The notes under the pieces: generated by a model
What the model was told of the DNA's origin: nothing
What the model saw: only the letters and a program-made list of their open reading frames with translations
Databases searched by the model: none
Origin: Sumerlaeia bacterium
GTDB taxonomy: Bacteria; Sumerlaeota; Sumerlaeia; SLMS01; JAHLLQ01
DNA: 34,300 nucleotides
NCBI GenBank assembly: GCA_040219255.1
Contig: JAVJSW010000026.1
Span: forward strand, 1-34,300
Reading direction: 5' to 3'
Shown here: piece by piece, positions 604 through 31,556 of the stretch
Layout of the letters: each line of letters opens with the position of its first letter
Numbering within the stretch: the first letter of the stretch is position 1
Position numbers and translations under genes: made by a program

Positions 604-1929
604 TTAGTGAGGCAGGCGATCCATCATCAACTCCTCGACCTTTTCGCGGAGCGGGTCGATCTTGATGCGGTCGGTGATGTCGCCCGCGAAAGCCTGGACG
701 AGCATATTCCGCGCCTTGCCGGCGGGGATGCCGCGGCTCTTCAGGTAGAACAGCGAGGCCTCGTCCATCTGGCCGATGGTGGCGCCGTGGGTGCACTTCA
801 CGTCGTCGGCGTAGATTTCCAACTGGGGCTTGGTGTTCACGCGGGCCGTGGGCGAGAGCAGAAGGTTCTGGTTCGTCTGCTTGGCATCGGTCTTCTGGGC
901 TTCCGGGTGGACGTAGATGCGGCCGGTGAAGACGGCGCTGGACTGGTCGTCGAGGATGCCCTTGAAGAGTTCGTGGCTCGGGATGTTGACCTGGCAGTGC
1001 TCGGCCCACATCCAGTTGTCCACGTGCTGCTTGCCGCGCAGCATGTAGAGCCCGTTGATGATGGCCTCGCTGGCTTCGCCTTCCAGCTTGGCGTAGTAAT
1101 CGTTGCGGGTCATGCGGCCGCCGAAGGTGATGGTGTGGCTGCGGAAGACGCTGTTGCGGTCCTGCACGGAGGACATTTCCGTCGTGCCGAGGGCGCTCTC
1201 GTCTTCGAGTTGCAACCGATAGTGATCGACGTAGGCGCGGGGGCCAAGGGCCGCTTCCAACACCACGTTGGTGTAGTTGCCGGCGCCCTCGCCAAGGCTG
1301 CAATGGGACTCGATGACGGTGCCGATGCTGCCTTCCTCGGCCACGAACAGATTGCGCACGTAGGCGGCCTTGGGGGTCGAGCCCTTCGTGTTCAGGAACA
1401 GCAGGTGGACCGGGGTTTCGACCGTTGCGGCCTTGGCCAGGTGAATCAGAACGCCCACGTGCATGTAGGCCGTGTTCAGCGCCACAAAGGGGTCGTTCTG
1501 GTAATCGGCGATCTGGCCCAGGTGGCGGCGCAGGATTTCCGTGTGGGTTTCCGTGGCGTGGCTGAAGGGAACGACCGTCAAGCCCGCGGGCTTGGTCGTC
1601 ATGTTCGACAGGTCGCTGCGGAAACGCCCATCCACGAACACCAGCCGGATGGCGTCGGGAAGCCCGTACATGTAGGGTTCGAGGTCGTCCTTGGTCAGCT
1701 CGGCGCCACCGGGGTCGCCAGCGGTGAAGGTGCCTTCGGCGATGGGCGTCAGGTCCGTGAAGCGGTAGTTTTCGTCGCGCTTCGCGGGAAAGCCCATTTC
1801 TGTGAAGCGCTTGAAGGCGGCGGTGCGCAGCTCGCCGAGCCAGGCCGGTTCGGATTCAGCCTGCGCGGCGGACCAGCCCACGAAATCATGGGTGAAGGAA
1901 TCGTTGAGAATGGCTGCTTTTTCGGCCAT
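604..1929 (-). CDS. sufD: Fe-S cluster assembly protein SufD
   Basis: ENYRFTDL, QKTDAKQTNQNLLLS, KPQLEIYADDVKCTHGATIGQ and FYLKSRGI. Start set at MAEK (1929), which follows an AAGGAG RBS. Confidence 0.95.
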   Translation of the reverse strand: MAEKAAILNDSFTHDFVGWSAAQAESEPAWLGELRTAAFKRFTEMGFPAKRDENYRFTDLTPIAEGTFTAGDPGGAELTKDDLEPYMYGLPDAIRLVFVDGRFRSDLSNMTTKPAGLTVVPFSHATETHTEILRRHLGQIADYQNDPFVALNTAYMHVGVLIHLAKAATVETPVHLLFLNTKGSTPKAAYVRNLFVAEEGSIGTVIESHCSLGEGAGNYTNVVLEAALGPRAYVDHYRLQLEDESALGTTEMSSVQDRNSVFRSHTITFGGRMTRNDYYAKLEGEASEAIINGLYMLRGKQHVDNWMWAEHCQVNIPSHELFKGILDDQSSAVFTGRIYVHPEAQKTDAKQTNQNLLLSPTARVNTKPQLEIYADDVKCTHGATIGQMDEASLFYLKSRGIPAGKARNMLVQAFAGDITDRIKIDPLREKVEELMMDRLPH

Positions 1930-1969
1930 GGTTCGATGGTGCTCCTTGTGCGGGTCGAGGGTCTCTGTC

Positions 1970-2069
1970 GTAGCACGGGCGTCCCGCCCGTGACCGGCCA
2001 ACTCTTCGGATACGGAAGCGTCCTGGACACGCCAAGATCTTCCGGCCATGGGCAAGAGGCCCATGGTAC
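1970..2069. repeat. Inverted pair of REP-like palindromes (REPIN-like doublet)
   Basis: GTAGCACGGGCGTCCCGCCCGTG on + (1970-1992) and GTACCATGGGCCTCTTGCCCATG on - (2069-2047). Same length and layout: GTAG/GTAC foot plus a 7-bp hairpin, with a compensatory stem change. Confidence 0.6.
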
Positions 2070-2076
2070 ACAGAGC

Positions 2077-2853
2077 TTAGCTGGCGGCGCCGGCGTGGCG
2101 GATCGCCTTGGCCCAATCGTAGCCCTCTTCCTCGAGGCGCAGGGCGAGGGTCTTGTCGCCCGACTCGATGATCCGGCCGTTCACCAGAACGTGCACGAAA
2201 TCCGGTTCGATGTAATTCAGAAGCCGCTGATAGTGTGTCACCACGATGAAACTGCGGTCGGGCGAGCGCATCGCGTTCACGCCCTTGGCGACGACCTTGA
2301 GGGCGTCGATGTCGAGGCCCGAATCGGTTTCGTCGAGGACGCAGAGCTTGGGCTCGAGGACGGCCATCTGGAGGATTTCGTTGCGCTTCTTCTCGCCGCC
2401 GGAGAAGCCGACGTTGACCGAGCGCTTGAGCATTTGCTCGTCGATTTCGACCAGCTTGGCCTTCTCGCGGATCAGCTTGAGGAAATCGCCGGCGCTCATC
2501 TCGTCCTTGCCGTTGGCTTCGCGGATCGAGTTGAGGCAGCTGCGCAGGAAGTAGTTGTTCGTAATGCCGGGGATTTCCACCGGGTACTGGAACGCCATGA
2601 AGATGCCCTTGTGGGCGCGCTCGTCGGCACCATCTTCCAGGATGCTTTCGCCTTCCAGAAGGACGTCGCCGTCGGTGATTTCGTAATCTTCGGCGCCCGC
2701 CAGGATGCGGGCAAGGGTGCTCTTGCCCGAGCCGTTCGGACCCATGATGGCGTGCACTTCGCCGGGCCCGACCTTCAGGTCCAGACCGTGCAGAATTTCT
2801 TTGGCATCGCCTTCGTCGTCGATGCGGGCGTGAAGGTTTTTGATCTCAAGCAT
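2077..2853 (-). CDS. sufC: Fe-S cluster assembly ATPase SufC
   Basis: Starts MLEIKNLHA after a GGAG RBS; Walker A GPNGSGKST, FQYPVEIPG, FSGGEKKRNE, LDETDSGLDID, VTHYQRLL. Confidence 0.96.
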   Translation of the reverse strand: MLEIKNLHARIDDEGDAKEILHGLDLKVGPGEVHAIMGPNGSGKSTLARILAGAEDYEITDGDVLLEGESILEDGADERAHKGIFMAFQYPVEIPGITNNYFLRSCLNSIREANGKDEMSAGDFLKLIREKAKLVEIDEQMLKRSVNVGFSGGEKKRNEILQMAVLEPKLCVLDETDSGLDIDALKVVAKGVNAMRSPDRSFIVVTHYQRLLNYIEPDFVHVLVNGRIIESGDKTLALRLEEEGYDWAKAIRHAGAAS

Positions 2854-3645
2854 GGCGTGTGTATTCTCCAAGGTGTCTTTCTTCGTTTGTTTTGTTCGAG
2901 TTGAATCGGGGGAACGCTTCGGTGGCGTTGCGAAAATCTTGTGAGCCGTTTCGATCTGCTGAGCAAAGAACGACCCGTCTTTCCCCAGCGCCTTCAAGTC
3001 TGTCAGCAGCGTCGCGAGTTGTGCTTTCGCTGCCGCATTCTCTGAACTCCTCAGGATTTTGGCTGACAGGGCGAATCCCTCGGAGAGCAGCTTTTCTTCT
3101 CCGGACCCGGCCTGCGCGGCGAACATCGCGGCTTGCTCGAACGCGTCCTGCGTCTTGACCCGAACTTGCGCCACATCGCAGCACAACCGATGCGCCCCCA
3201 GCAGCCACCAGGCCCGCGACAGAATCAGCGGGGCCTTCTTCAAATCTTCCGTCAGCGCCAGATGCTCCTCCGCCGCTTCCAGGCCTCGCCGCTGCTCCAT
3301 CGCCGGAACCCAGATGCCCTCGTCGCCCCAACCCGGCCACGTATTCGCCGCGAGGTTGTAGAGAAGCGTCTTGCGGCTGCCGAGGACCGAGAGGAGCGCC
3401 TTCTCATCGTCCTTCGCGGTTGATGCCAGGAGGCACTTCGTCTCCTCCAACCCCGCCTCAAAGAACCGCACCGCCATCGGCACGTCCTTGCGCTCGCTGT
3501 ACGTCCGGCGGCCCAAGTCATCGAACACGCGGGGCGCGCCGCCTTCCTTTGCCTGAGAAACCACCACGTTGCAGGCCGCATCGAAACCACGAGACCCGAG
3601 GGTCTCCCAGGCGGTGTCTGATAGAGTGGGGGTTTCCTGAGTCAT
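2854..3645 (-). CDS. Hypothetical alpha-helical (TPR-like) protein of about 240 aa; no stop codon, reads in frame into sufC
   Basis: ATG at 3645 overlaps the upstream stop (ATGA). Contains YNLAANTWPGWG and LSRAWWLLGAH and helical composition. The ORF stays open to the sufC stop at 2077. Confidence 0.65.
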
Positions 3646-3989
3646 TGCGGATACGACCTTGAGCCAAGGCTTTCAGACGTCAGCTCTCTTTCCCGAAAGT
3701 ACAAAAACAGGGGCAGCGCGCAGGACAAACCCACCACGCAATTGACCGCCACAAAAACCCAGGGCGAAGGCATCCCGCCCACGCGGCGCGTTTCGGTGAA
3801 AACGAAGGGCCAGAAGGCGAGAATCGAAATCAGCAGATCGGCCACAAACGCCGCCGACAGCCTGTTCCACCACACCAACTCAGCCACTTGCTCCCAAGCC
3901 AACCCGTTCTCCGCCAGCCACCAAAGCCCCACCAGAAGAGGGAAGCAGCCGATGGCGGCGAGGACGAGGTAGAGGCGCCGGAGGGTCAC
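3642..3989 (-). CDS. Small membrane protein, DUF2834-like
   Basis: Three hydrophobic segments, motifs AFVADLLIS and VGLSCALPLFLYFRE; GTG start 12 nt after the sufB stop. Confidence 0.75.
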   Translation of the reverse strand: MTLRRLYLVLAAIGCFPLLVGLWWLAENGLAWEQVAELVWWNRLSAAFVADLLISILAFWPFVFTETRRVGGMPSPWVFVAVNCVVGLSCALPLFLYFRERELTSESLGSRSYPQ

Positions 3990-4001
3990 CGAACCCGGCC
4001 C

Positions 4002-5462
<1,461 letters not shown>

Positions 5463-5559
5463 GAGCGTTTTCCTCGGTTGGGTTTGATGAGTCGGTCAGG
5501 GGGTCGAAGGCGTCTTGGGTCTTGGTTGAGCGGCGCGCGTGCCAGGACAGAGGCGGCGG

Positions 5560-6111
5560 TTACACATTCTGTATCGTGGTCATCCATCGGGGGGCATCGA
5601 GCCCCACGCGGCCGACCGGCAGCGCCGGGGGTGGCATGGCGCGCACGGGCGGCGGCGGTTGCGGCGCGGCGGCTTTCGCCTGTTTCGCGCGCAGAGGCCG
5701 GGCGACTTCCCGCAGGTCGATGCGCCGGAAGACCGCCAGCACCTCGTCGTTGATGCGCTTCCACATCGCGCAGGACGGGCAGGCGTCCTCAAGAAAACAG
5801 GCGCGGCCGCCTTCTTCCGAACACTCCGTCAAAGCCATCGGCCCTTCGAGCACATCGACCACTTCCGCCAGGGAAATCGCTTCCGGCGCGCGGGCCAGCC
5901 GGTAGCCACCGGCCGCGCCGCGGTGCGAGGCCAGAATGCCGCCCTTGGCGAGAGCCTTCAAAATCTTGCTGACGGTCGGCGGCGGCACGCCGCTGCGATC
6001 CGCCAGGTCGCGGGCGCTGAGGCCTTCCGAGGCGTCGCCCCGGGCGAAATCGGCCACCATGTGGGCCAAAAGGACCACGCCGTAATCGGTCAGTTTTGTC
6101 ACGCGCAGCAT
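5560..6111 (-). CDS. Rrf2-family (IscR/SufR-like) regulator of the suf operon
   Basis: Typical start MLRVTKLTDYG; winged HTH with SHRGAAGGYRLAR; Cys cluster TEC-x7-C-x5-C; first gene of the operon. Confidence 0.92.
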   Translation of the reverse strand: MLRVTKLTDYGVVLLAHMVADFARGDASEGLSARDLADRSGVPPPTVSKILKALAKGGILASHRGAAGGYRLARAPEAISLAEVVDVLEGPMALTECSEEGGRACFLEDACPSCAMWKRINDEVLAVFRRIDLREVARPLRAKQAKAAAPQPPPPVRAMPPPALPVGRVGLDAPRWMTTIQNV

Positions 6112-6145
6112 GTGGCAAAAAAGCCCAAGGGCCAGCTCCCGGAGG

Positions 6146-6170
6146 AATTGGGACCAAATTGGTTCCCATT
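6146..6170. promoter_or_regulatory. Candidate Rrf2 operator (imperfect palindrome)
   Basis: AATTGGGACCAAATTGGTTCCCATT, an AT-rich dyad about 35 nt upstream of the Rrf2 start and just downstream of a candidate promoter. Confidence 0.6.
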
Positions 6171-6185
6171 CACGCCGGGATGCGA

Positions 6186-6213
6186 ATACTATGCCATGAA
6201 ACCTGGATGGCAA
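6186..6213 (-). promoter_or_regulatory. Candidate sigma70 promoter for the suf operon
   Basis: Minus strand TTGCCA (6213-6208), 16-nt spacer, TAGTAT (6191-6186). Confidence 0.45.
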
Positions 6214-6466
6214 GCATGAATCTCGGACGATCCGCGAGTCTTGGCGGGGACGCCCTGAAGGCGGGCGCGAGTCCCGGCCCGATGGCGCGGGGCGAGACGA
6301 GGCCTCGAAGAAAAGTCGCATCCCTGGGTCCCGCCGCGCTCCCTTCCGTCTTGACCATCATGGCCGCTTCTTTCATAAATGAGGGTGTAGAGGATAGACC
6401 TCCTTCGGTCTTTTCTTTTGCTCTGCCCGTCCCGATGCCTTTAGGGTCCCCATAGAGGTTTGCCCC

Positions 6467-13850: not shown

Positions 13851-14519
13851 TTACCGGCGAATCGCTTCCGCCTTGATGAGCAGGATTTCCTCGCTCCCTT
13901 CGCCCAGCGACACGCTGGTCCATGCGCGTTGCTCCAGCCTCACTGGCCGACTTGCCACTTCGTCGGCCTGACCCTGACCCCAATGGTGAAGACGGGCCTC
14001 GAAGGGCCGCAGTTCGATCGGGTCGACTGGCGTGGCGGCATTGGGCGTCAGATCGACCGTCAGGGTGCTGCCCTTTTGATCCTCTGATTGACCTTCCTGA
14101 ATCTGGATACTGAAGGAGGCCGATTCGCCTTCGAGGACGGTGATCGTGGGGGAGTTGATGATTCGAACGACGCCGCCTTCCTCGAAGACCTTGAAGTGAT
14201 TGAGGTTCATGTTGGCGGCGCGGTTGAGGAGGGCCTCTTTGACGGCGGCCTTGGCGGCGGCGGGAGCGGCGGGCTGGAGGCGGACGACCCGGAGGTCGAA
14301 GAGAAGCTGGGTCGGTACGGCGAATTCGCCGCCGGAGCGGCGGAATGAGGGGACCGTGCCCAACTCGGCCTCGCGCAGGATCTGCTCGGGCGAGGTGGCG
14401 CCCCGCGCCACGGAGACGACGTCGGCCGATGAGATGAGCGGCCCTTTGCCCCCCCCTCCGCAGCCTGCCAGGAAGAGGGCGGTGAGAATGAAGGAAAAGA
14501 TGGCGAGTCGACGAGTCAT
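13851..14519 (-). CDS. Lipoprotein of unknown function with secretin-like sequence segments
   Basis: Signal peptide with lipobox FLAG|C; GAGGA RBS; segments QLLFDLRVVRL, IINSPTITVLEGESASF and EEILLIKAEAI. Confidence 0.7.
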   Translation of the reverse strand: MTRRLAIFSFILTALFLAGCGGGGKGPLISSADVVSVARGATSPEQILREAELGTVPSFRRSGGEFAVPTQLLFDLRVVRLQPAAPAAAKAAVKEALLNRAANMNLNHFKVFEEGGVVRIINSPTITVLEGESASFSIQIQEGQSEDQKGSTLTVDLTPNAATPVDPIELRPFEARLHHWGQGQADEVASRPVRLEQRAWTSVSLGEGSEEILLIKAEAIRR

Positions 14520-14680
14520 GACCGGAGGTCCTCTTGAACGTGGGGGCTATCGGCGTCCGATGGAATAAGGGCTTCGGACCGGACATGCCAGAGCACCGCC
14601 ACGCCGGTTTGCGGGCAATGGCAAATGGGACGTTCTAGCCGGCGGTGTTTGTCAGCCCGCTGTGGGGCTACGCTTCTTCG

Positions 14681-23632: not shown

Positions 23633-23661
23633 TTGACACGCCTACAAGTGTAGTCCATTGC
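23633..23661 (+). promoter_or_regulatory. Promoter -35 element with overlapping BlaI/MecI/CopY-type operator
   Basis: TTGACA (23633-23638) followed by the palindrome CTACA-AG-TGTAG (23642-23653), matching the TACA-N2-TGTA consensus of this repressor family; 40 nt upstream of blaI. The -10 is weak. Confidence 0.8.
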
Positions 23662-23693
23662 TTACACCATCAATCGCAGGAACGAGGTCCGCC

Positions 23694-24119
23694 ATGCCGC
23701 ACCAATCGCCTGAACCGGAAACGGGTCCGCCGAGTCTTTCGCCCGCCGAGTGGGACGTGATGAAGCCGTTGTGGGAGGCCGGTGCGCTGGCCGCCCGCGA
23801 CATCCACAGCCGCGCCGGCGAAGCCAACGGCTGGGCGGTGAAGACCACGAAGTCGCTGCTGGCGCGGCTGGTGGCCAAGGGCGCCCTCGATTACGAGCAG
23901 GTCGGCAACGCCTACCTGTATCGCGCCTGCTGGAGCCGCGAGGAAGTGACCCGCCACGAGACGGAAGCTTTTCTGGAGCGGGTTTTCGACGCGCCGTCGA
24001 GTGCCGCCCCGGTGGTGGCGCGGTTGTTGGGCGGAGGCCGTCTGGCCCCCGAGCAAATCGAGGAACTGCGGCGTTTGCTGGATGAACGCGAAGCCAAGGA
24101 AGAGGAGGAAAGCGCCTGA
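23694..24119 (+). CDS. BlaI/MecI/CopY-family transcriptional repressor
   Basis: LSPAEWDVMKPLW, WAVKTTKSLLARLVAKGAL, GNAYLY, FLERVFD; GAGG RBS; TGATG coupling to the next gene. Confidence 0.93.
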   Translation: MPHQSPEPETGPPSLSPAEWDVMKPLWEAGALAARDIHSRAGEANGWAVKTTKSLLARLVAKGALDYEQVGNAYLYRACWSREEVTRHETEAFLERVFDAPSSAAPVVARLLGGGRLAPEQIEELRRLLDEREAKEEEESA

Positions 24120-25246
24120 TGCCCGCCCCATTGGAAAGTTTCCTTTCATCCTGGTCCGTGTGGATCCTTGCGGCATCGTGGCAGTTGGCGCTGCTGGGGG
24201 TGGTTGTCTGGGCGTTGTGCCGGATTTTTCCGGCGATGCCGCTGCGGCTGCGGTATGCGCTGTGGCTCGTGGTGTTGATCAAGGCCTTCCTGCCGCCGAC
24301 GCTGGGGGCGCCGTGGGGGTTTGGGTCCTGGGGCGTGGAGCCGGTGCGGGATTTGGCCGCGTCGGTGCTGCATCTGCACATGAACCCGATCGAGGCCTGG
24401 CACGCCGAGGTCCACAACCCGGCGGAGCTGGGCATCGTGCGCCAGGAGCTGCCCGCGTGGTTTTCGTCCTTCAAGCCGGTGGCGCCCTGGGTGGCGCTGG
24501 CGCTGTGCGCCGTGTGGTTGCTTGGTTTGCTGGGTGGTTTGGCTGGGATTCTGGCCGAACAAGGCCGGTTGGCCTGGATGCTGAGCCGCGCCCGGATTGT
24601 GGAAAGCGGCCCGTTGGCCGATGCCCTCGTCCGCCGCGCGAAGGCTGTGGGGGTGCGGGCGCCCAGGCTGCTGCTGTGCCGGGAAACGGACGAGCCATTC
24701 CTCTGCGGGCTGTTCCGTCCCGCCATCGTACTGCCCGCCGGATTGCCGGGCGATTTGTCCGCCGAGGCCCTCGACTCTGTTCTGGATCACGAATTGATCC
24801 ACCTGCGGCGGGGGGATTTGCTGGCCTGCTGGGCCGAGGCACTGCTCGGGTGCCTGTTCTGGTTCCATCCGGTGGCGTGGCTGGTGCAGGCGCGGCTGGA
24901 CGAAGAGCGCGAGTTCGCCGTGGATGAAGCCGCCGCGCGCCTCAGCCGGCCGTCGCGCTATGGCCGGGCGCTGCTGGAAACGGCGCTGGCCTGCGCCCGC
25001 CAACGAACGGGCCAGGGCGTCGCCTGTGGCTTTCTCGGCTGGGCCGGGGCGGCCAACGGACCGGACGATTTGCTGGCGCGCCGTATCCGCCGCGTGACCG
25101 AATTGCCGGAACGAGAACCGCCCGCGTCGATCTTTGGAAGTTACGCCACGGTGGCGGTCTTCGCGCTGGTATTCGTGCCCCTGGGGCCCGTTTCCGAAGC
25201 CACCGCCGCCGCCCCGCCTCCCTCAGTAGCAGTCTCTCAACCATAG
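24119..25246 (+). CDS. BlaR1-like membrane metallopeptidase (M56) lacking a C-terminal penicillin-binding sensor domain
   Basis: LRYALWLVVL, PFLCGLFRPAIVLP, HELIHLRRGD, FWFHPVAW, EREFAVD, YGRALL, LARRI; ends shortly after the last TM helix. Confidence 0.92.
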   Translation: MPAPLESFLSSWSVWILAASWQLALLGVVVWALCRIFPAMPLRLRYALWLVVLIKAFLPPTLGAPWGFGSWGVEPVRDLAASVLHLHMNPIEAWHAEVHNPAELGIVRQELPAWFSSFKPVAPWVALALCAVWLLGLLGGLAGILAEQGRLAWMLSRARIVESGPLADALVRRAKAVGVRAPRLLLCRETDEPFLCGLFRPAIVLPAGLPGDLSAEALDSVLDHELIHLRRGDLLACWAEALLGCLFWFHPVAWLVQARLDEEREFAVDEAAARLSRPSRYGRALLETALACARQRTGQGVACGFLGWAGAANGPDDLLARRIRRVTELPEREPPASIFGSYATVAVFALVFVPLGPVSEATAAAPPPSVAVSQP

Positions 25247-25252
25247 CCTTTT

Positions 25253-25268
25253 CAACAGTCTAGTCCAT
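25253..25268 (+). promoter_or_regulatory. Possible degenerate second copy of the blaI operator/promoter region upstream of gspE
   Basis: CAACAGTCTAGTCCAT versus TACAAGTGTAGTCCAT (23643-23658): 12 of 16 identical. Confidence 0.35.
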
Positions 25269-25331
25269 CTTTGCGAAGCCGCCCCCCGGTTCCGCCCCGC
25301 TTGAACTCCGCCCATCCAAGGACCCCGCGCC

Positions 25332-26534
25332 ATGACTTCCGCCCTGACCTCCTCCTCCGTGCAAAGCCGCCTCGACGCCCTGCCGGTCAATGACGACTGG
25401 GGCGTGGCGGCGGCGGCGCTGCTGCTGGGCGCGGCGCATGGCGATGGCTTCTCCGATCTGCATTTACAGCCCAGCCGCGAGGGTCTTCTGGCCCGTGGGC
25501 GGCGCGATGGCGAGCTGGTGCCTCTGGCCCGGATTCCGGCGGCGCGGAGGGACCTGCTGCTGTCTCGCTTCAAGGTCATGGCGCGGCTGGCCGCGTTTGT
25601 TCGCAATGAACCCCAGGACGGCCGCATCGAATGGAAACCGGAAGGCGCCGCCAGCCCGCTGATTCTGCGGGCGGCGTTCCTGCCGATGCTGCACGGCGAG
25701 AGCCTGGTCGTACGTTTTCCCCGCGAGGAAACGGGGCTTTCCAGCCTCGAGTCCCTCGGCATGACAGCCCCGGTGCGGGCGGCTTTCGAGGAGGCGCTCC
25801 AGACGCGCGAGGGCACGCTGCTGCTGACCGGTCCCGGCGGCAGCGGCAAGACCACCACGCTCTACGCGCTGCTGCGGGCGCTGCACGACCGCCATGGCGA
25901 CCGGCTGAACATGCTGAGCATCGAGGACCCGGTGGAGCGCGATTTGCCCTTCGCCGGCCAGGTGCAAGTCAACGAAGCCCAAGGCATGACGTTCGACAAA
26001 GCGCTGCGGGCGGCGCTGCGCCAAGACCCGAACGTGCTCCTGATCGGCGAAATCCGCGACACGGAAACGGCCCGCATCGCCATCCAGGCGGGCACGAGCG
26101 GCCATCTGGTGCTCTCGACACTGCACGCGGGGCGGGCGGCGCGGGTGTTCACGCGGCTGCTGTCGATGGGCGTCGAACCTTATCAGGCGGCCTCGGCCTT
26201 GATCGGCGCGGGGGCGCAACGCCTGGCGCGGTGCCTCTGTCCGGAATGCCGCGTGCCCGCGCGAGGCGTGGCGGGAATGGAGCGTGGCCCGGGCTGCGAG
26301 GCCTGCGGCGGCACCGGCCACGCGGGGCGGGCGGGGCTGTTCGAACTGGCCCGCGTCACCGAGCCGCTGCGCGAGCTGATCCTGGCCCGCGCCGGAGCCC
26401 ACGCCATCGCCGAAGCCGCCGCCGAACGACAGGCCGGCGATCTCGCCGCGCAAGCCCGCGACCTCGTCGCCGCTGGAACCATCTCTCAGGCCGAGGCGGA
26501 TTTCGTTCTCGGCCCTGGCGATTTCACCCTGTAA
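25332..26534 (+). CDS. gspE: GspE/PilB-family secretion/filament assembly ATPase, short form without N1 domain
   Basis: SDLHLQP, PQDGRI, Walker A GPGGSGKTT, SIEDPVE, LRQDPNVLLIGEIRD, GHLVLSTLH, Zn motif CPEC..CEAC, GRAGLFE. Confidence 0.9.
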   Translation: MTSALTSSSVQSRLDALPVNDDWGVAAAALLLGAAHGDGFSDLHLQPSREGLLARGRRDGELVPLARIPAARRDLLLSRFKVMARLAAFVRNEPQDGRIEWKPEGAASPLILRAAFLPMLHGESLVVRFPREETGLSSLESLGMTAPVRAAFEEALQTREGTLLLTGPGGSGKTTTLYALLRALHDRHGDRLNMLSIEDPVERDLPFAGQVQVNEAQGMTFDKALRAALRQDPNVLLIGEIRDTETARIAIQAGTSGHLVLSTLHAGRAARVFTRLLSMGVEPYQAASALIGAGAQRLARCLCPECRVPARGVAGMERGPGCEACGGTGHAGRAGLFELARVTEPLRELILARAGAHAIAEAAAERQAGDLAAQARDLVAAGTISQAEADFVLGPGDFTL

Positions 26535-26578
26535 CCCCTGACCCCTCGATCCTCAAACGAGAGGAGCTTGAGCGACCC

Positions 26579-28294
26579 ATGTCTCAACCTCGACCCGTCC
26601 GGCCTGGCCGCTCCATTTGGCGCGGCGATCTGGGCCACATTCTGAACCTGCCGGGTTTGCGACCATGGTCTCAACGCTGGCGCACGACGCTGGCCGCGAA
26701 CCTGAGCAGCCGCCGCGAAGGCAAATCCGTTTTCTTCGACGAACTGGCTGAGGCGCTGCGCCAAGGCGCGCCGCTGACGCTGGCGCTTGAAACCAACAGC
26801 CAGAACCTGGGCGAGGCCCGCGACTCGGTGGGCAAGGCCCAACCGAAGGGAGCCAACACGCGCGGCGCCGGTTACGCCGTGCTCCTCGCTCTGGCGCTCA
26901 TCGTCTTTCCCATCGGCCTGCCGATGCTCGCGTTCTTCCTGCTGCTCTCGGCGCGCAACGTGGACGCGGAGCGCGTGGCCCGGCTGCTGGCGATGCGCCT
27001 GCTGCCCCATGTGGAGAAGGGACTCGGCCTCGCCGAGGCGATGGAGCGCACCGGCGACTACTCCTCCGCCGAGCTGGAAACGATACGCGCCGCCGAGCGC
27101 TACAACGCTGTTCCCGATGGGTTGCGGCGGCTGGCGAACCGCGCCGTGGCCGATCAGCGCCTGCTGAGCTTGAACCTGGCGACGCTCTATCCGCTGTTGA
27201 TCCTGCTGATCGTGACCCTCGTCGGCGGCTTCATCATGTGGATGATTCTGCCCAAGTTCGTGGATATCTTCGATCAACTCGGCATCGCGCTGCCGGAAGC
27301 GACACTGCGCCTGATCGTCTTCGCGGAAGCCTTCAATCCGATTCACATTTTCTCCACCTACCTGGCGATTCTGTTTCTGATGTTTTGCGTTCGCGCCGCG
27401 CGCCGGGCTTACGGGGCTCGCCGGGTCATTCCGTGCGCCGTCGCCGTCGTGATCGTGCTGGGCTTGTTCGCCGCTTCTGCCGTCCAACCGCTCTCGCTGC
27501 TGCTTAGCCTCATCGTGCTCGCGGTGGTTTTCCTGCTGGTGCGGGGGTTGATGAACGGGGGGCGCGCGGCTCAGGGGCTTCTCGCGGTCCTGGCGATGCT
27601 CCATCTGCTGCCGGTGGCGGGCCTGCTGGCGGTGTTGGCGGTTTGGATCATCGACCAATTGCTCACGCTGTCGGGCGCTCAGTCGGGCGATTTCGTCCGT
27701 TCGCTCGATGACGGCGCCCAAGCCTTGATCGGCGGGATCTCGGCGGTGGTGACGATTGTGATTTTCACTCCCTGGATGGTCGAGACGTTGGAACGCGGGG
27801 TGATCGGGATCGAGGAAACCATCAATGCCGCCGGCCGGCGGATTCCGGGAATCGCCCGGGCCTTCAGCGCGGAGGCCGAATCACGGTGGCTCGCCGCGCT
27901 GGCTTTGGGACTGCAAAGCGGCGTCCTCACGCCGGCGGCGCTGCGCCAGGCCGGAGCGGTCGCCGGAGGCCCAATGCGAGGCCGCAGCGACGCCGCCGCC
28001 GAACTGGCCGAGAAGGGCCTGCCGCTCGGCCAATCTTGCCTCCAGAGCCACGTCCTGCCCGGCCGCTTCAGCCACCGCATCGCCTTCCTGGAGGGCGGTT
28101 CGAAACTGCACGAGGGCCTGCAAGAAATCGCCGGAGACGCCGCCGCGGAAGCGGAAATCCGCCGCGAACGGCTCTCCCGCATCGGAGCCGTCTGCGGCCT
28201 GGTGGTGGTCGGCATTTTCGCCTGCTTCATCGCCTACGCCCTCTACATGCCGCTCTTCGCTATTCCGACTCTGCTGCTCGACCAACCGGTCTGA
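26579..28294 (+). CDS. GspF/PilC-family platform protein with expanded membrane region (571 aa)
   Basis: FFDELAEALRQGAPL..AL, GLGLAEAM, YPLLIL..ILPKFVDIFDQLGIALPEAT, ALGLQSGV, terminal ALYMPLF; GAGGAG RBS before ATG 26579. Confidence 0.82.
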   Translation: MSQPRPVRPGRSIWRGDLGHILNLPGLRPWSQRWRTTLAANLSSRREGKSVFFDELAEALRQGAPLTLALETNSQNLGEARDSVGKAQPKGANTRGAGYAVLLALALIVFPIGLPMLAFFLLLSARNVDAERVARLLAMRLLPHVEKGLGLAEAMERTGDYSSAELETIRAAERYNAVPDGLRRLANRAVADQRLLSLNLATLYPLLILLIVTLVGGFIMWMILPKFVDIFDQLGIALPEATLRLIVFAEAFNPIHIFSTYLAILFLMFCVRAARRAYGARRVIPCAVAVVIVLGLFAASAVQPLSLLLSLIVLAVVFLLVRGLMNGGRAAQGLLAVLAMLHLLPVAGLLAVLAVWIIDQLLTLSGAQSGDFVRSLDDGAQALIGGISAVVTIVIFTPWMVETLERGVIGIEETINAAGRRIPGIARAFSAEAESRWLAALALGLQSGVLTPAALRQAGAVAGGPMRGRSDAAAELAEKGLPLGQSCLQSHVLPGRFSHRIAFLEGGSKLHEGLQEIAGDAAAEAEIRRERLSRIGAVCGLVVVGIFACFIAYALYMPLFAIPTLLLDQPV

Positions 28295-28335
28295 CGCCGC
28301 CGTCCCCTTCCCAACTCGATTTGGAGTGACCTCAA

Positions 28336-29364
28336 ATGCCTGCACTGACCCTCAATGAACTCGATCGCTTGACGCAAGAACTCGCGAGCCTTTCGCGGTC
28401 CGACATTCCCCTGCCGCAGGGCCTGCGGCACCTCTCGCAGAGCCTCGAATCGGGCCGGCTGCGCACCGTTGCCGCGGAAAGCGCCGACGAGTTGGAACGC
28501 GGCAAGAGCCTCGCCGACGCCCTCGCCGCTTCCTCCATCCAGGTGCCCGCCTCGTATCTGGCGTTGGTGCGTTGCGCGGAAACCACCGGCGACAGCCGCA
28601 GCCTCCTGGAGTTCGCCGCCGAGCACAGCCGCCGCCTGCGGATCCATCACGCGGCGCTGGCCACGGCGCTGCTCTATCCGCTGCTGCTGACCATCGGCGT
28701 GATGTTGCTGCTGACGCTGCTGGCGAACACATTGGTGCTCGAGTTTTTCGACATCTACGCCCAGCTCGGCGCCGAACTGCCCGCCCTGACCCTGCTGATT
28801 CTGAACATTCTCCGCATTTTCCAAGGGCCCGGCGGCATCGCTTTGGCTCTTCTCCTGATCGGTGCTCTGGTCTTTGTCGCCGCCACGCCGCACATGCGCG
28901 ACCGCGCGTTTCAGATGATGAACTGGGTGCCCGGGGCGCGGTCGCTGACCCAGCTTTCCGACGCCGGACTGGTGATGAAGTTCCTGTCCGTGGCGCTCAA
29001 GTATGGCGCGCCTCTGCCAATGGCGCTGGAAGCGGCCGAGCTGGCCGTTGCGGAAGGCCGCACGCGGCGCCATCTGCGCCAGATGAGCGAAGCCGCCGAG
29101 CGTGGCCAGCCCACGGCCCCGCACCTGAGCCCCGGCACGCCCGCCACCGCCGCCTACCTCTACGAGCAGGGTGAGCAGCGGGGCGATCTGGCCGCCGCCT
29201 GCGGAGGTATCGCCGATTACTGCGAAGCGCGCTTCGACCGCCTGAGCCGCCGCACCGCCGCCCTGTTCGAACCCCTGATGGTCCTGGGCATCGGCGTCTT
29301 CATGGCCATCATGCTGATCTCACTTTACTTGCCTTTGTTCTCGATCCCAAAGGTGGTGCGATAA
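28336..29364 (+). CDS. GspF/PilC-family platform protein (compact, 342 aa)
   Basis: LERGKSLADAL, AETTG, LLYP, LGAELPALT, GEQRGDL, FEPLM, SLYLPLFSI. Confidence 0.9.
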   Translation: MPALTLNELDRLTQELASLSRSDIPLPQGLRHLSQSLESGRLRTVAAESADELERGKSLADALAASSIQVPASYLALVRCAETTGDSRSLLEFAAEHSRRLRIHHAALATALLYPLLLTIGVMLLLTLLANTLVLEFFDIYAQLGAELPALTLLILNILRIFQGPGGIALALLLIGALVFVAATPHMRDRAFQMMNWVPGARSLTQLSDAGLVMKFLSVALKYGAPLPMALEAAELAVAEGRTRRHLRQMSEAAERGQPTAPHLSPGTPATAAYLYEQGEQRGDLAAACGGIADYCEARFDRLSRRTAALFEPLMVLGIGVFMAIMLISLYLPLFSIPKVVR

Positions 29365-29759
29365 TGAAGACGACTCCCTCTCGAAACCGCCGCGCCGTGA
29401 CGCTGCTGGAAACCATGATCGCGGTCTTTCTGCTGACCCTCATCGTGGGGTTCACGATGCGGTCGCTGGGGCAATCTTCGGTCCTGCGGGCGCGAGCCGC
29501 CCAACGCGCTGAACTGGCCCTGGTGGCCCAGACGGAACTCGACCGCCTGCGCCGCGAACCGGACGCGCTGACCTCCGGAACGCGCACGCTTCAGGATCCC
29601 GCATGGACCGCGGGAACCACCGTGGCCGCCGCCGCCGAGCCCCAGAGCCCCGGCGTCTGGCGCCTGGAAGTGAGCGCCTCCCGCGCCACCATCGAGGGTC
29701 TCGCCCCCGTGCGCCTCGTCACCCTGATCCCCGCCCCCGAGGAAGGAGGTGCCCCATGA
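29364..29759 (+). CDS. Minor (pseudo)pilin, GspI/PilV-like
   Basis: Class III signal RRA|VTLLETMIAVFLL with Glu at +5; TAATG coupling. Confidence 0.8.
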   Translation: MKTTPSRNRRAVTLLETMIAVFLLTLIVGFTMRSLGQSSVLRARAAQRAELALVAQTELDRLRREPDALTSGTRTLQDPAWTAGTTVAAAAEPQSPGVWRLEVSASRATIEGLAPVRLVTLIPAPEEGGAP

Positions 29760-30301
29760 CCCGCCGAACTCCCCGCCTCCGCCGAGCCTTCACGCTCATA
29801 GAACTTCTAATTGTCGTCGCCATCATCGCGATCATTTCCGGCGCCCTGATGGGCGGCTTGATCCTGCCCCTGAAGGAGCACCCGCGCGCCGACGCCGACG
29901 CCGCGATGCAGCGCGGAGCCGCCCTGTTCGCCGCCGCCGTCACCGCCGACGCGCACGACGCGCTCTCGGCCGAGGTCAGCGCCAACGGTTCCGCGCTCCT
30001 GATCCGCCGCCTGCCCGAGGGCAGCCCCGCCGCCCTCTACTGGACGGACGAGGGCTCGTCCCTTCGCCGGGCGCTGGTGAACGACGCTGCCGCTTCACAG
30101 GACCTCGAAGCCGCCATGGCGGCCACGGAAACGGGCGCGGCGCTCCTGGCGGACGTCTCCGCCTTCCGCGCCACCGTGACCACGCAAACCCTTTCGATCG
30201 AGCTGACCGCCGGCCATGTCTTCTACGAAGTCCCGGTCCGCGCCGTTCGATCCTTTGAACTGACCCTCGGCCCCGCGGGCTGGGCGGGAGGAACCCCATG
30301 A
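29756..30301 (+). CDS. Minor (pseudo)pilin, GspJ/PilW-like
   Basis: MTRRTPRLRRA|FTLIELLIVVAII; GGAGG RBS; ATGA overlap at 29756. Confidence 0.82.
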   Translation: MTRRTPRLRRAFTLIELLIVVAIIAIISGALMGGLILPLKEHPRADADAAMQRGAALFAAAVTADAHDALSAEVSANGSALLIRRLPEGSPAALYWTDEGSSLRRALVNDAAASQDLEAAMAATETGAALLADVSAFRATVTTQTLSIELTAGHVFYEVPVRAVRSFELTLGPAGWAGGTP

Positions 30302-30711
30302 GAACCGATCGCAATCGCCGCCGGGGCGCCCTGATTTATGGCATGGCGGCCATGATTCTCGTTTTTTCGACGCTGTGTGCGCTGGTGCTGCTGCGGTCGC
30401 TGGAGAGCTATCGCGGCGCCGCCGACCTGGAGCAACGCCTGGCCCTGCGCGCCGCCGCCGAAGGCGCCGCCGTCCTGGCCATGAAGAGCGGCGGCTCGCC
30501 GACAAGCGCCACCCTGGAACTTGGCGCCTGCCGCGTCGTCTTCGCCGAATCCGTCGCCGACGCCCCCACCACCGGGACGCTGACATTACCCGTGACCATC
30601 ACGCGCCTCGCCCCCAACGGGGCGGAAATCCGCCGCCAGGAGGTCCGCCTGCACCTTGCGCGCGGTTCCGAGGGCGCCCTGACCTATGCCGGAATGGAGG
30701 TCCAACCATGA
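30298..30711 (+). CDS. Small minor pilin, GspK/PilX-like
   Basis: RRRG|ALIYGMAAMILV without Glu+5 and an ALRAAAEGA helix, as in K/X-type pilins; ATGA overlap. Confidence 0.72.
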   Translation: MRTDRNRRRGALIYGMAAMILVFSTLCALVLLRSLESYRGAADLEQRLALRAAAEGAAVLAMKSGGSPTSATLELGACRVVFAESVADAPTTGTLTLPVTITRLAPNGAEIRRQEVRLHLARGSEGALTYAGMEVQP

Positions 30712-31556
30712 CCCGCAAAGCCTTTACCTTGATCGAGCTTCTCGTGGTGGTGGCCGTCATCGCCATTCTGGCGGCCATCGCCGTTCCCAACTTCCTGGAA
30801 GCCCAGGTCCGAAGCAAAACTGGCCGTACCTATCACGACATGGCCGTGATCGACGCCGGAGCCAAAGCGTACTACGCGGATTTTGGCGTCTATCCGCCAA
30901 ACCAGAGGGACATCTACCGGTTCCTGGTGGCGTATGATACGGCGCGGGCGGATGCGCCCACGACGCCGGCCACGCAGGCAGCGACTGGGGGAAACGATCC
31001 CTTCGGCGGCGGTGGTGCCGACCCGTTTGGGGGCGGGTTTGGAGTCTATAACCACCATTCCGTGGACGATCATTCGCCGCTCAGGCTGAGCACGCCCGAG
31101 GACTCCACGTTGGCTTTTACTATCCACGACTTCGACCCGGCGGCCCGTTCCGGCGACGCAGCGCTTGAGAATTCAGGAATGTTGAGCAGTCACTGGGGAC
31201 ACTATTCCCTGCCGGCCTATCCGCCGCTCATCGCCAGCTCCCTCGATCTTCGGGCCCTGACCACTCCGATTCCCTACATCGGGCGAGCCCTGCCCCAGGA
31301 CACATTCTCCGACACCCGCGGTCTCCCGTTCCGCTACCTCGACCTCAGCGGTCTCTACGCCCGCCATCCCGAGCTCATCCCGTCCGGCGCCGCGCCGCGC
31401 TATCTGCTGCTGTCCTACGGGCCGGACAGCGACCAGGCAAGCGCCTTTGGCGACGTCACCGATCCGGTCCGGGGCGAATTCGTCCAGTACGATCCGACCA
31501 ATGGCACCGTGTCCCAGGGCGATCTCGGGAGTTTGGGCCTGATGCGGGGGCCATGA
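30708..31556 (+). CDS. Major (pseudo)pilin, GspG-like, with C-terminal YDPTNGTVSxGD motif
   Basis: MTRKA|FTLIELLVVVAVIAILAAIAVPNFLEAQVRSK, AYYADFGVYP, LTTPIPYI, LLSYGPD, YDPTNGTVSQGD; GGAGG RBS; ATGA overlap. Confidence 0.88.
   Translation: MTRKAFTLIELLVVVAVIAILAAIAVPNFLEAQVRSKTGRTYHDMAVIDAGAKAYYADFGVYPPNQRDIYRFLVAYDTARADAPTTPATQAATGGNDPFGGGGADPFGGGFGVYNHHSVDDHSPLRLSTPEDSTLAFTIHDFDPAARSGDAALENSGMLSSHWGHYSLPAYPPLIASSLDLRALTTPIPYIGRALPQDTFSDTRGLPFRYLDLSGLYARHPELIPSGAAPRYLLLSYGPDSDQASAFGDVTDPVRGEFVQYDPTNGTVSQGDLGSLGLMRGP

Follow-up and report, generated by a model that had tools for sequence, protein, structure and literature searches.

A conserved, apparently undescribed type IV filament gene module with a predicted exchangeable proteolysis-type switch in Sumerlaeota

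The subject of this study is a nine-gene cluster in the genome of a Sumerlaeia bacterium. It lies at positions 23633 to 31556 of a window of 34,300 nucleotides, that is, the whole stretch of DNA analysed (contig JAVJSW010000026.1 of assembly GCA_040219255.1, positions 1 to 34,300). Nine genes of the + strand follow a predicted operator in the order blaI, M56, E, F1, F2, I, J, K, G. The first two encode a repressor and a membrane protease, and the others, hereafter the module, encode the ATPase, platforms and pilins of a type IV filament machine. The features are as follows (aa, amino acids).

23633..23638, + strand: -35-like hexamer TTGACA, read from the sequence
23642..23653, no strand: palindromic BlaI-type operator (predicted), CTACAAGTGTAG, 12 bp, between the -35 hexamer and the expected -10
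23694..24119, + strand: blaI, repressor of the BlaI/MecI/CopY family, 141 aa (PF03965, 95.8 bits)
24119..25246, + strand: M56 membrane zinc protease, 375 aa (PF05569, 130 bits)
25247..25331, + strand: gap between M56 and E, 85 bp, without a terminator-like site in a consensus scan
25332..26534, + strand: E, short extension ATPase of the PilB/GspE family, 400 aa, without the N-terminal N1D
26579..28294, + strand: F1, platform, 571 aa, two T2SSF domains and extra membrane segments
28336..29364, + strand: F2, platform, 342 aa, two T2SSF domains, without the first ~60 residues of GspF/PilC
29364..29759, + strand: I-like minor pilin, 131 aa, class III signal with E5
29756..30301, + strand: J-like minor pilin, 181 aa, N_methyl and TIGR02532
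30298..30711, + strand: K/PilX-like small pilin, 137 aa, basic leader, G and hydrophobic helix, no E5
30708..31556, + strand: G-type pilin of an expanded Sumerlaeota family, 282 aa, N_methyl, variable Pro/Gly-rich insert

Coordinates and Pfam assignments (Penicillinase_R, Peptidase_M56, T2SSE, T2SSF in two proteins, N_methyl in J and G) agreed with a preliminary description of this DNA, which had reported TTGACA followed by a TACA-N2-TGTA operator and nine co-oriented genes with five of eight junctions overlapping. Indeed, blaI/M56 and F2/I overlap by 1 bp, and I/J, J/K and K/G by 4 bp; the remaining gaps measure 85 bp (M56-E), 44 bp (E-F1) and 41 bp (F1-F2). The same description saw no clear terminator between M56 and the ATPase gene, and the consensus scan likewise found none. 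All nine genes are intact, with catalytic motifs present, and the G+C content at their third codon positions is 0.77-0.85 versus a genome median of 0.83, an agreement by which we ruled out a recent transfer of the cluster.

The cluster was compared with 75 genomes of the phylum, from 18 families (G-numbers denote genomes of this set, G000 being the present one). The M56-E gap measures 33-89 bp in G042, G041 and G053, the shortest being the 33 bp of G042. The palindrome follows TACA-N2-TGTA, which, like the label "BlaI-type", we take to be the usual form for this family. It was present in all four genomes with a visible blaI promoter; its flanks match those of this genome at 10/10 positions in G053 and in G036 and at 9/10 in G042, and TTGAC or TTGAT stands at the matching position upstream of blaI in these three relatives. 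Upstream of 17 module heads without BlaI, the operator was absent (best score at most 8). No full sigma-70 promoter ahead of blaI was found by consensus scan, so the -10 element is not canonical.

The filament genes are conserved well beyond this genome. F1-F2-I-J-K-G is syntenic in 24 of the 75 genomes and in 11 of the 18 families. Among the best 20 F2 loci, 17 carried these six genes in order and three were canonical pilC; 20 further regions added six genomes, two with the module split over contigs and two in which no G was seen, and a profile search with F1 yielded no additional module. Of the 24 module genomes, 12 have the ATPase gene within the operon and 10 have it elsewhere; in the other two, drafts of 80-84% completeness, it was not found. 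A short ATPase thus accompanies the module in 22/24 genomes, versus 6/51 of the other genomes. A second minimal module, G-F-E-I-J(-K), was noticed at L199, L200, L202, L203 and L204 (G043, G050, G015, G007 and G008); it has one short platform, an ATPase of a separate short clade and an I pilin frame that opens with a multi-transmembrane region.

The ATPase has the Walker A, Asp box, Walker B, His box and Cys4 motifs. It aligns to TIGR02533 from model position 115 and to TIGR02538 from position 189, and only 9 codons of open frame precede its ATG, which leaves no room for N1D. Its bit scores were 320 for GspE (cut-off 630), 288 for PilB (676), 212 for ComGA (300) and 50 for the TadA-family model. 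In the ATPase tree, all 29 short ATPases lay on one side of a branch (Shimodaira-Hasegawa-like approximate likelihood ratio test, SH-aLRT, 98), apart from 37 others that include the six full-length PilB/GspE of this genome. N1D is missing throughout the short clade, and the PilB on contig C39 of this genome belongs to another clade than E. This tree and that of the platforms came from quick searches with SH-aLRT support only and contained no ComGA sequence; the ATPase tree also excluded PilT-like rows and one very long row. Orphan relatives were also seen. A second short ATPase of E's clade lies at G000:C60:328321-329541 with no adjoining module or regulator, and in G021 and G022 (L297, L298) orphan short ATPases stand, by eye, directly behind an efflux membrane-fusion-like gene.

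The two platforms differ from each other and from canonical ones. Hydropathy predicted 5-8 transmembrane segments in 15/15 F1 orthologues versus 3 in 16/17 F2 orthologues, and F2 aligns from position 63 of TIGR02120 and from residue 78 of PilC in 3jc8. Each forms its own clade (SH-aLRT 98 for F1, 94 for F2), and the two are old lineages apart from the canonical platforms, a duplicated F2 in G003 being the exception. Against the ComGB model, the platform score was 70 bits (cut-off 240). Among the best 150 F2 homologues, 63 share the short length of F2 and 31 unite two platform units in one protein; such fused proteins are natural support that favours a predicted F1/F2 heteromer. The double-platform proteins (P0177, P0184, P0186 and others) have ~780 aa, with extra membrane segments joining the units. 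A search for one of these fusions at a strict threshold, which covered 61 genomes of one class and 5 named genomes of Planctomycetota, did not find it. Scoring 8,000 candidates with the F1 profile brought to light one more close homologue.

We named I, J, K and G from gene order and signal peptides and, for G, also from the predicted fold. N_methyl fell just below the Pfam cut-off in I, which weakly matches ComGE (29 bits, cut-off 49). K had no match in Pfam, NCBIfam or the PDB; its look-alikes in a structure atlas are unnamed clusters and DUF2509. G scored 39.5 against TIGR01710 (cut-off 88.9) and 31 bits against ComGC (cut-off 75). Since the model of the window G has a predicted local distance difference test score (pLDDT) of 48, its fold was read from the shorter G042 orthologue (pLDDT 84.6). 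That model is closest to EpsG (Z 6.9, root-mean-square deviation 2.7, 94 residues aligned), in a near-tie with a type IVb pilin (Z 6.5) and PulG (Z 6.4), and Foldseek returned no match at E 0.001. The G family counts 36-37 members in this genome. Judging by eye from the N-termini, several orphan G-type paralogues are flanked by regulator-like genes and by genes for secreted-looking proteins, and at G000:C32:12046-14157 (L307) an extracytoplasmic function (ECF) sigma factor with a long C-terminal extension stands directly upstream of a G-type pilin.

What does the cluster lack? The preliminary description saw no secretin, GspC/L/M, PilM/N/O or prepilin peptidase gene in it. A homologue search for these and for PilP came to the same result within the cluster and located all of them elsewhere in the genome, which is 92% complete. 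It has six full-length PilB/GspE ATPases, five canonical platforms, eight secretin matches, three PilM loci and one prepilin peptidase, with pilMNOPQ and pilB-pilC on other contigs, so that the missing parts are available in trans. C35 (pilMNOPQ) and C44 (pilM-O-Q) are alignment/secretin loci that lack an E and an F, and C49 has an orphan secretin; no complete system of this genome lacks a motor. Two type II secretion system (T2SS) loci are equipped with E, F, pilins and L/M/C of their own. The cluster is therefore not merely one half of a standard split T2SS, a case the preliminary description had left standing: E is devoid of N1D, and E, F1 and F2 form lineages of their own, apart from the T2SS and type IVa pilus (T4aP) parts of this genome.

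Around the modules of the 24 genomes, queries with the secretin, alignment and peptidase proteins of this genome (33 loci) detected a secretin or alignment gene near the module in 2/24 genomes, both on the opposite strand, in flanks that are incomplete where contigs are short, as many are. In G061, a gspL-M-C-D cluster lies 1.3 kb past the module; in G072 (L046:11921-15355), two tandem secretin genes lie on the other strand, 4 kb from it. In the window itself, a lipoprotein-like open reading frame of ~222 aa at 13851-14546 (- strand) weakly resembles the C44 secretin (E 8e-6) and has no match in Pfam. TonB-dependent receptors occur in 11/75 genomes of the phylum, one in each, the present genome included, and this scarcity suggests that another outer-membrane route is needed.

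We then considered the regulatory pair. It has the marks of the BlaIR family: a Penicillinase_R repressor adjoins an HExxH M56 protease, and a TACA-N2-TGTA palindrome lies at its own promoter. The repressor scores below every NCBIfam BlaI/MecI/CopY cut-off. The protease has HELIH at 224 and EREFAVD at 263, reaches 55 bits against a BlaR1/MecR1-type model (cut-off 400) and ends 19 residues beyond its last predicted transmembrane segment. As the M56 protein thus has no sensor domain, beta-lactam sensing was ruled out. According to the sections at hand of PMC13492132, BlaR homologues as a rule lack a sensor, and a beta-lactam-binding domain occurs in only ~6% of M56 proteins. A Pfam scan of the window cluster showed no beta-lactamase or PBP2a gene. 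Elsewhere, in G059, the gene directly downstream of an ECF-headed module, on the same strand (L034:5913-6968), is of the class A beta-lactamase family; no such gene was seen beside the other modules.

The preliminary description had left room for the pair not being adjacent to the filament genes in relatives. The relatives proved otherwise: blaI-M56-E is contiguous in G053 and G042 as in this genome; in G041, M56-E is contiguous and the contig ends within M56; and G036 has lost M56, with blaI directly on E and both operator and module retained. This adjacency to the module spans three families at 36-40% M56 identity. Its reach is limited, however. The BlaI head is confined to one order and to 5/24 module genomes, and the four module M56 proteins form one clade (support 99, FastTree), so the head represents one event within one order. 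Among the matches listed, neither blaI nor M56 stood at any of 80 ATPase loci of named genomes, mostly ordinary GspE/PilB, a result too narrow to establish absence beyond the phylum, and the module followed none of 79 metagenome M56 loci, of which 38 had 1.5 kb or more of downstream sequence. Nor was a shared BlaI regulon seen, other operator-like sites in four relatives belonging to another blaI-M56 pair or to no module gene. One further operator-like palindrome in this genome, at G000:C46:157738 (L032:4739), lies just upstream of a UDP-sugar dehydrogenase gene that heads a polysaccharide cluster and is divergent from a subtilisin-like gene; it is a possible BlaI target candidate, and alone it is not significant. 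Beside the second blaI-M56 pair of this genome, a large DNA methyltransferase-like open reading frame (L001:1450-5007) was noticed by eye.

In seven other genomes, a different regulator fills the same place. There, the short ATPase follows an ECF sigma factor and a partner of 165-275 aa, anti-sigma-like, with a predicted membrane segment in 4/5 tested. In all, a regulator stood directly upstream in 12/30 short-ATPase loci, BlaI/M56 in 5 and an ECF sigma factor in 7, two loci having little or no upstream sequence (G003 was not part of the ECF comparison). Neither type of regulator preceded any of the controls, which were 80 outside ATPase open reading frames and 15 other ATPases of this genome. 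A site of ECF type, GTCA(A/T)C-N16/17-CGTC(T/A)A, precedes 4/7 ECF operons and 4/11 modules whose ATPase lies elsewhere. Matches to this motif at two G-type pilins fell inside the pilin genes and were dismissed as coding coincidences. The second minimal module, too, has an ECF sigma factor upstream in 4/5 genomes. The preliminary proposal that BlaI and M56 control the module thus stands in part: the pair is adjacent to it in relatives, but the other module genomes have an ECF pair or no such head. The BlaI-M56 pairing is, on the gene arrangements, one lineage's form of a wider pattern. Two unrelated regulators in one slot are the best evidence that the machine would be inducible and that the M56-E adjacency would be functional.

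The tails of M56 proteins provided a further lead. The phylum has 101 M56 matches over the cut-off, and the 61 with long tails were scanned: Pfam T2SSG scored above its cut-off in 11 of them (9 genomes, 6 families). Each of these proteins, at L349:767-3973 and ten other loci among L353-L412, bears at least one GspG-type pilin head, and some bear several, in its periplasmic tail. Of the heads displayed, 8/10 share the LTTPI/LAY motif with the module G and five begin 19-44 residues past the last M56 transmembrane segment; the long M56 protein closest to the module clade has a T2SSG tail too. Other tail domains (HEAT, carboxypeptidase-like, beta-helix, leucine-rich repeats and others) are equally common, which makes the pilin heads a lead and not a proof.

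Collectively, gene content and order, motifs, domain loss, separate ancestry, the conserved operator and the swappable head lead us to regard the cluster as a real, conserved and apparently undescribed type IV filament variant with a modular, proteolysis-type switch. This agrees with the preliminary view of a stripped-down filament machine behind a proteolysis-type regulator, and the head adjacency in relatives and the operator found wherever visible show the pairing to be conserved. As to function, we give an even chance to an inducible inner-membrane motor, typical of Sumerlaeota, with a Com-like parts list and Tad-like two platforms, which would build a short GspG-type filament and borrow a peptidase and probably a secretin. 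In such a scheme, BlaI would bind the palindrome beside the -35 box and repress the whole operon as one transcript; an envelope signal would activate M56, BlaI would be cut and the machine made. The pilins would be matured by the single prepilin peptidase of the genome. The N1D-less ATPase would dock directly on a heteromeric F1/F2 platform, with no PilM or GspL, as in Com pili; the filament would be initiated by I, J and K, and G, perhaps together with several of the ~36 orphan paralogues, would extend it into a short T2SS-like endopilus, a piston for secretion or uptake that would most likely work via a secretin encoded elsewhere.

Several observations weigh against this scheme. Six genomes carry a short ATPase and no module, and no substrate or cargo gene is conserved beside the module. 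The predicted GspG-like fold of G rests at Z <8 and is tied with a type IVb pilin. The Cys4 site is absent in two orthologous ATPases, and one ATPase of G045 has an internal stop, the second short ATPase of that genome being intact. On the regulatory side, no -10 element fits the consensus; the BlaI head is one event in related, hence not independent, genomes, and the seven ECF cases amount to about four lineages, which are not independent either. Moreover, the ECF motif was defined post hoc from these very sequences and occurs 4-12 times per genome, often within genes, and 10/22 module genomes with a short ATPase show no regulator ahead of it.

These difficulties leave room for other explanations. 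One that we hold doubtful, while giving it some weight, is that the machine is mainly a sensor of its own regulator: G would supply in trans the periplasmic domain that is fused in other M56 proteins, and the state of the filament or the pilin pool would switch the protease or the anti-sigma factor, a pilin-based counterpart of TonB-dependent cell-surface signalling. The T2SSG heads on 11/61 long M56 tails, mostly of the module G family and present also on the long M56 protein nearest to that of the module, point in this direction, as do the ECF upstream of the separate second minimal module and, in G022, an M56-pilin fusion that has the ECF-type site of the module. However, M56 tails are mixed, so that pilin heads may be cargo rather than sensor, G036 has kept blaI, operator and module without M56, and many modules lack such a head. 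A broader version is equally tentative, namely that Sumerlaeota use GspG-type pilins for trans-envelope signalling as well as uptake, the operon being the unfused form in which a filament subunit would be the input of the M56 or anti-sigma switch that turns the motor on. It is unlikely, in our view, that the module serves as an accessory set of motor and pilins, joined to the ordinary alignment complex and secretin of the host (for example C44 pilM-O-Q or C35 pilMNOPQ), in effect a split T2SS or T4aP. The C35 and C44 loci indeed have no E or F, C49 offers an orphan secretin, gspL-M-C-D lies 1.3 kb beyond the module in G061, and split loci are common in T4aP (PMC6668835, in the portion at hand). 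Yet six full-length ATPases and five canonical platforms are already available to C35 and C44, N1D is missing across E's whole clade, and the fetched flanks of the 24 genomes contain no co-operonic alignment gene.

The regulatory pair could also have landed upstream once, as a self-regulating unit, the filament genes being transcribed separately. Its single origin, the 85-bp gap and the absence of the module behind the 79 metagenome M56 loci listed agree with this. We nevertheless consider it quite improbable: three families with M56 identities of 36-40% retain the adjacency, the gap shrinks to 33 bp in G042, blaI and operator adjoin E directly in G036, and in seven genomes the slot is taken by an unrelated regulator. 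Least credible to us is an old system decaying in many lineages, for which one could cite the patchy distribution (24/75), the orphan ATPases of six genomes, the stop in G045 and the loss of Cys4 in two ATPases: the nine window genes are intact with catalytic motifs, gene order is kept over 11 families and the second short ATPase of G045 is intact.

If the inducible motor is real, it would represent a type IV filament subtype with core parts only in a two-membrane bacterium, and a natural test both of whether ATPase and platform suffice for assembly and of the reason for a second platform in some systems. It would also link BlaIR-type proteolysis, the signals of which are mostly unknown, to pilins by operon structure and domain fusion, and provide a candidate motor for dozens of orphan pilins in a phylum largely without TonB-dependent receptors. 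Its seven structural genes are compact enough for expression in a laboratory strain. Elsewhere in the window, an Rrf2 regulator and sufB/sufC/sufD-type Fe-S assembly genes (604-6321, - strand) appear ordinary.

How does the module compare with known systems? Its layout is undescribed in the literature searched, in which subscription papers were sparsely covered and supplements not, so a mention there is possible. It has what a type IV filament generically has in the sections at hand of Denise 2019, that is, a clustered ATPase, inner-membrane platform and major pilin. The regulatory pair resembles CenIR of C. difficile (PMC13492132) and PvmSR of P. aeruginosa (10.64898/2026.08.03.742534), which also combine a BlaI repressor with an M56 protein without a beta-lactam-binding domain. 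Unlike here, the parts of those accounts at hand name no filament or secretion target, and T2SSG is absent from the abbreviations in the figure legend on common architectures (PMC13492132).

In gene content alone, the closest likeness is to the Com (ComG) pilus, as far as the sections at hand of PMC10191384 describe it: the locus encodes ATPase and platform only, with no MNOP, secretin or PilT, in one operon with small minor pilins, and the peptidase lies elsewhere. A membrane complex of ATPase and platform is described there as sufficient for Com pili. However, Com hosts are monoderms, whereas the module host has an outer membrane (secretins, a TonB-dependent receptor), and the module has two platforms; its E, platform and G fall below the ComGA, ComGB and ComGC cut-offs, E fitting GspE/PilB better. 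Among 78 flanking proteins scanned, none was ComEA or ComEC, no search having been aimed at these families. One ATPase with two different platforms is a trait shared with the Tad pilus (T4cP), in which the arrangement is thought to give extension and retraction with one motor, and a contact between N1D and PilM has been inferred from T2SS structures (PMC11656802, and for Tad also PMC10191384, in the sections at hand). Unlike F1 and F2, with two platform domains each, TadB and TadC have one; moreover, the module ATPase is PilB/GspE-like and not TadA-like, its pilins are not Flp (G has 282 aa), and Rcp/Tad accessory genes are absent from it.

With the T2SS, the module shares a GspE-like ATPase with Cys4, GspF-like platforms and an order of I-J-K type; the modelled fold of G may be GspG-like, at modest Z and tied with a type IVb pilin. 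It differs by the missing N1D, by the absence of C/L/M/D/H from the locus, by its two platforms and by scores that fall, for all proteins, under the TIGR cut-offs; instead of H, I, J and a large K, it has three minor pilins, the K-like one of 137 aa. Unlike T4aP, the locus has no PilT or PilMNOP, and E is under the PilB cut-off. In TonB-dependent signalling of the FecIRA type, a membrane-anchored regulator, freed by proteolysis, stands ahead of an envelope machine. Unlike there, the module locus has no TonB-dependent receptor, and a link would have to run via the pilins; the likeness would lie in a membrane-anchored, proteolysis-type regulator placed ahead of an envelope machine.

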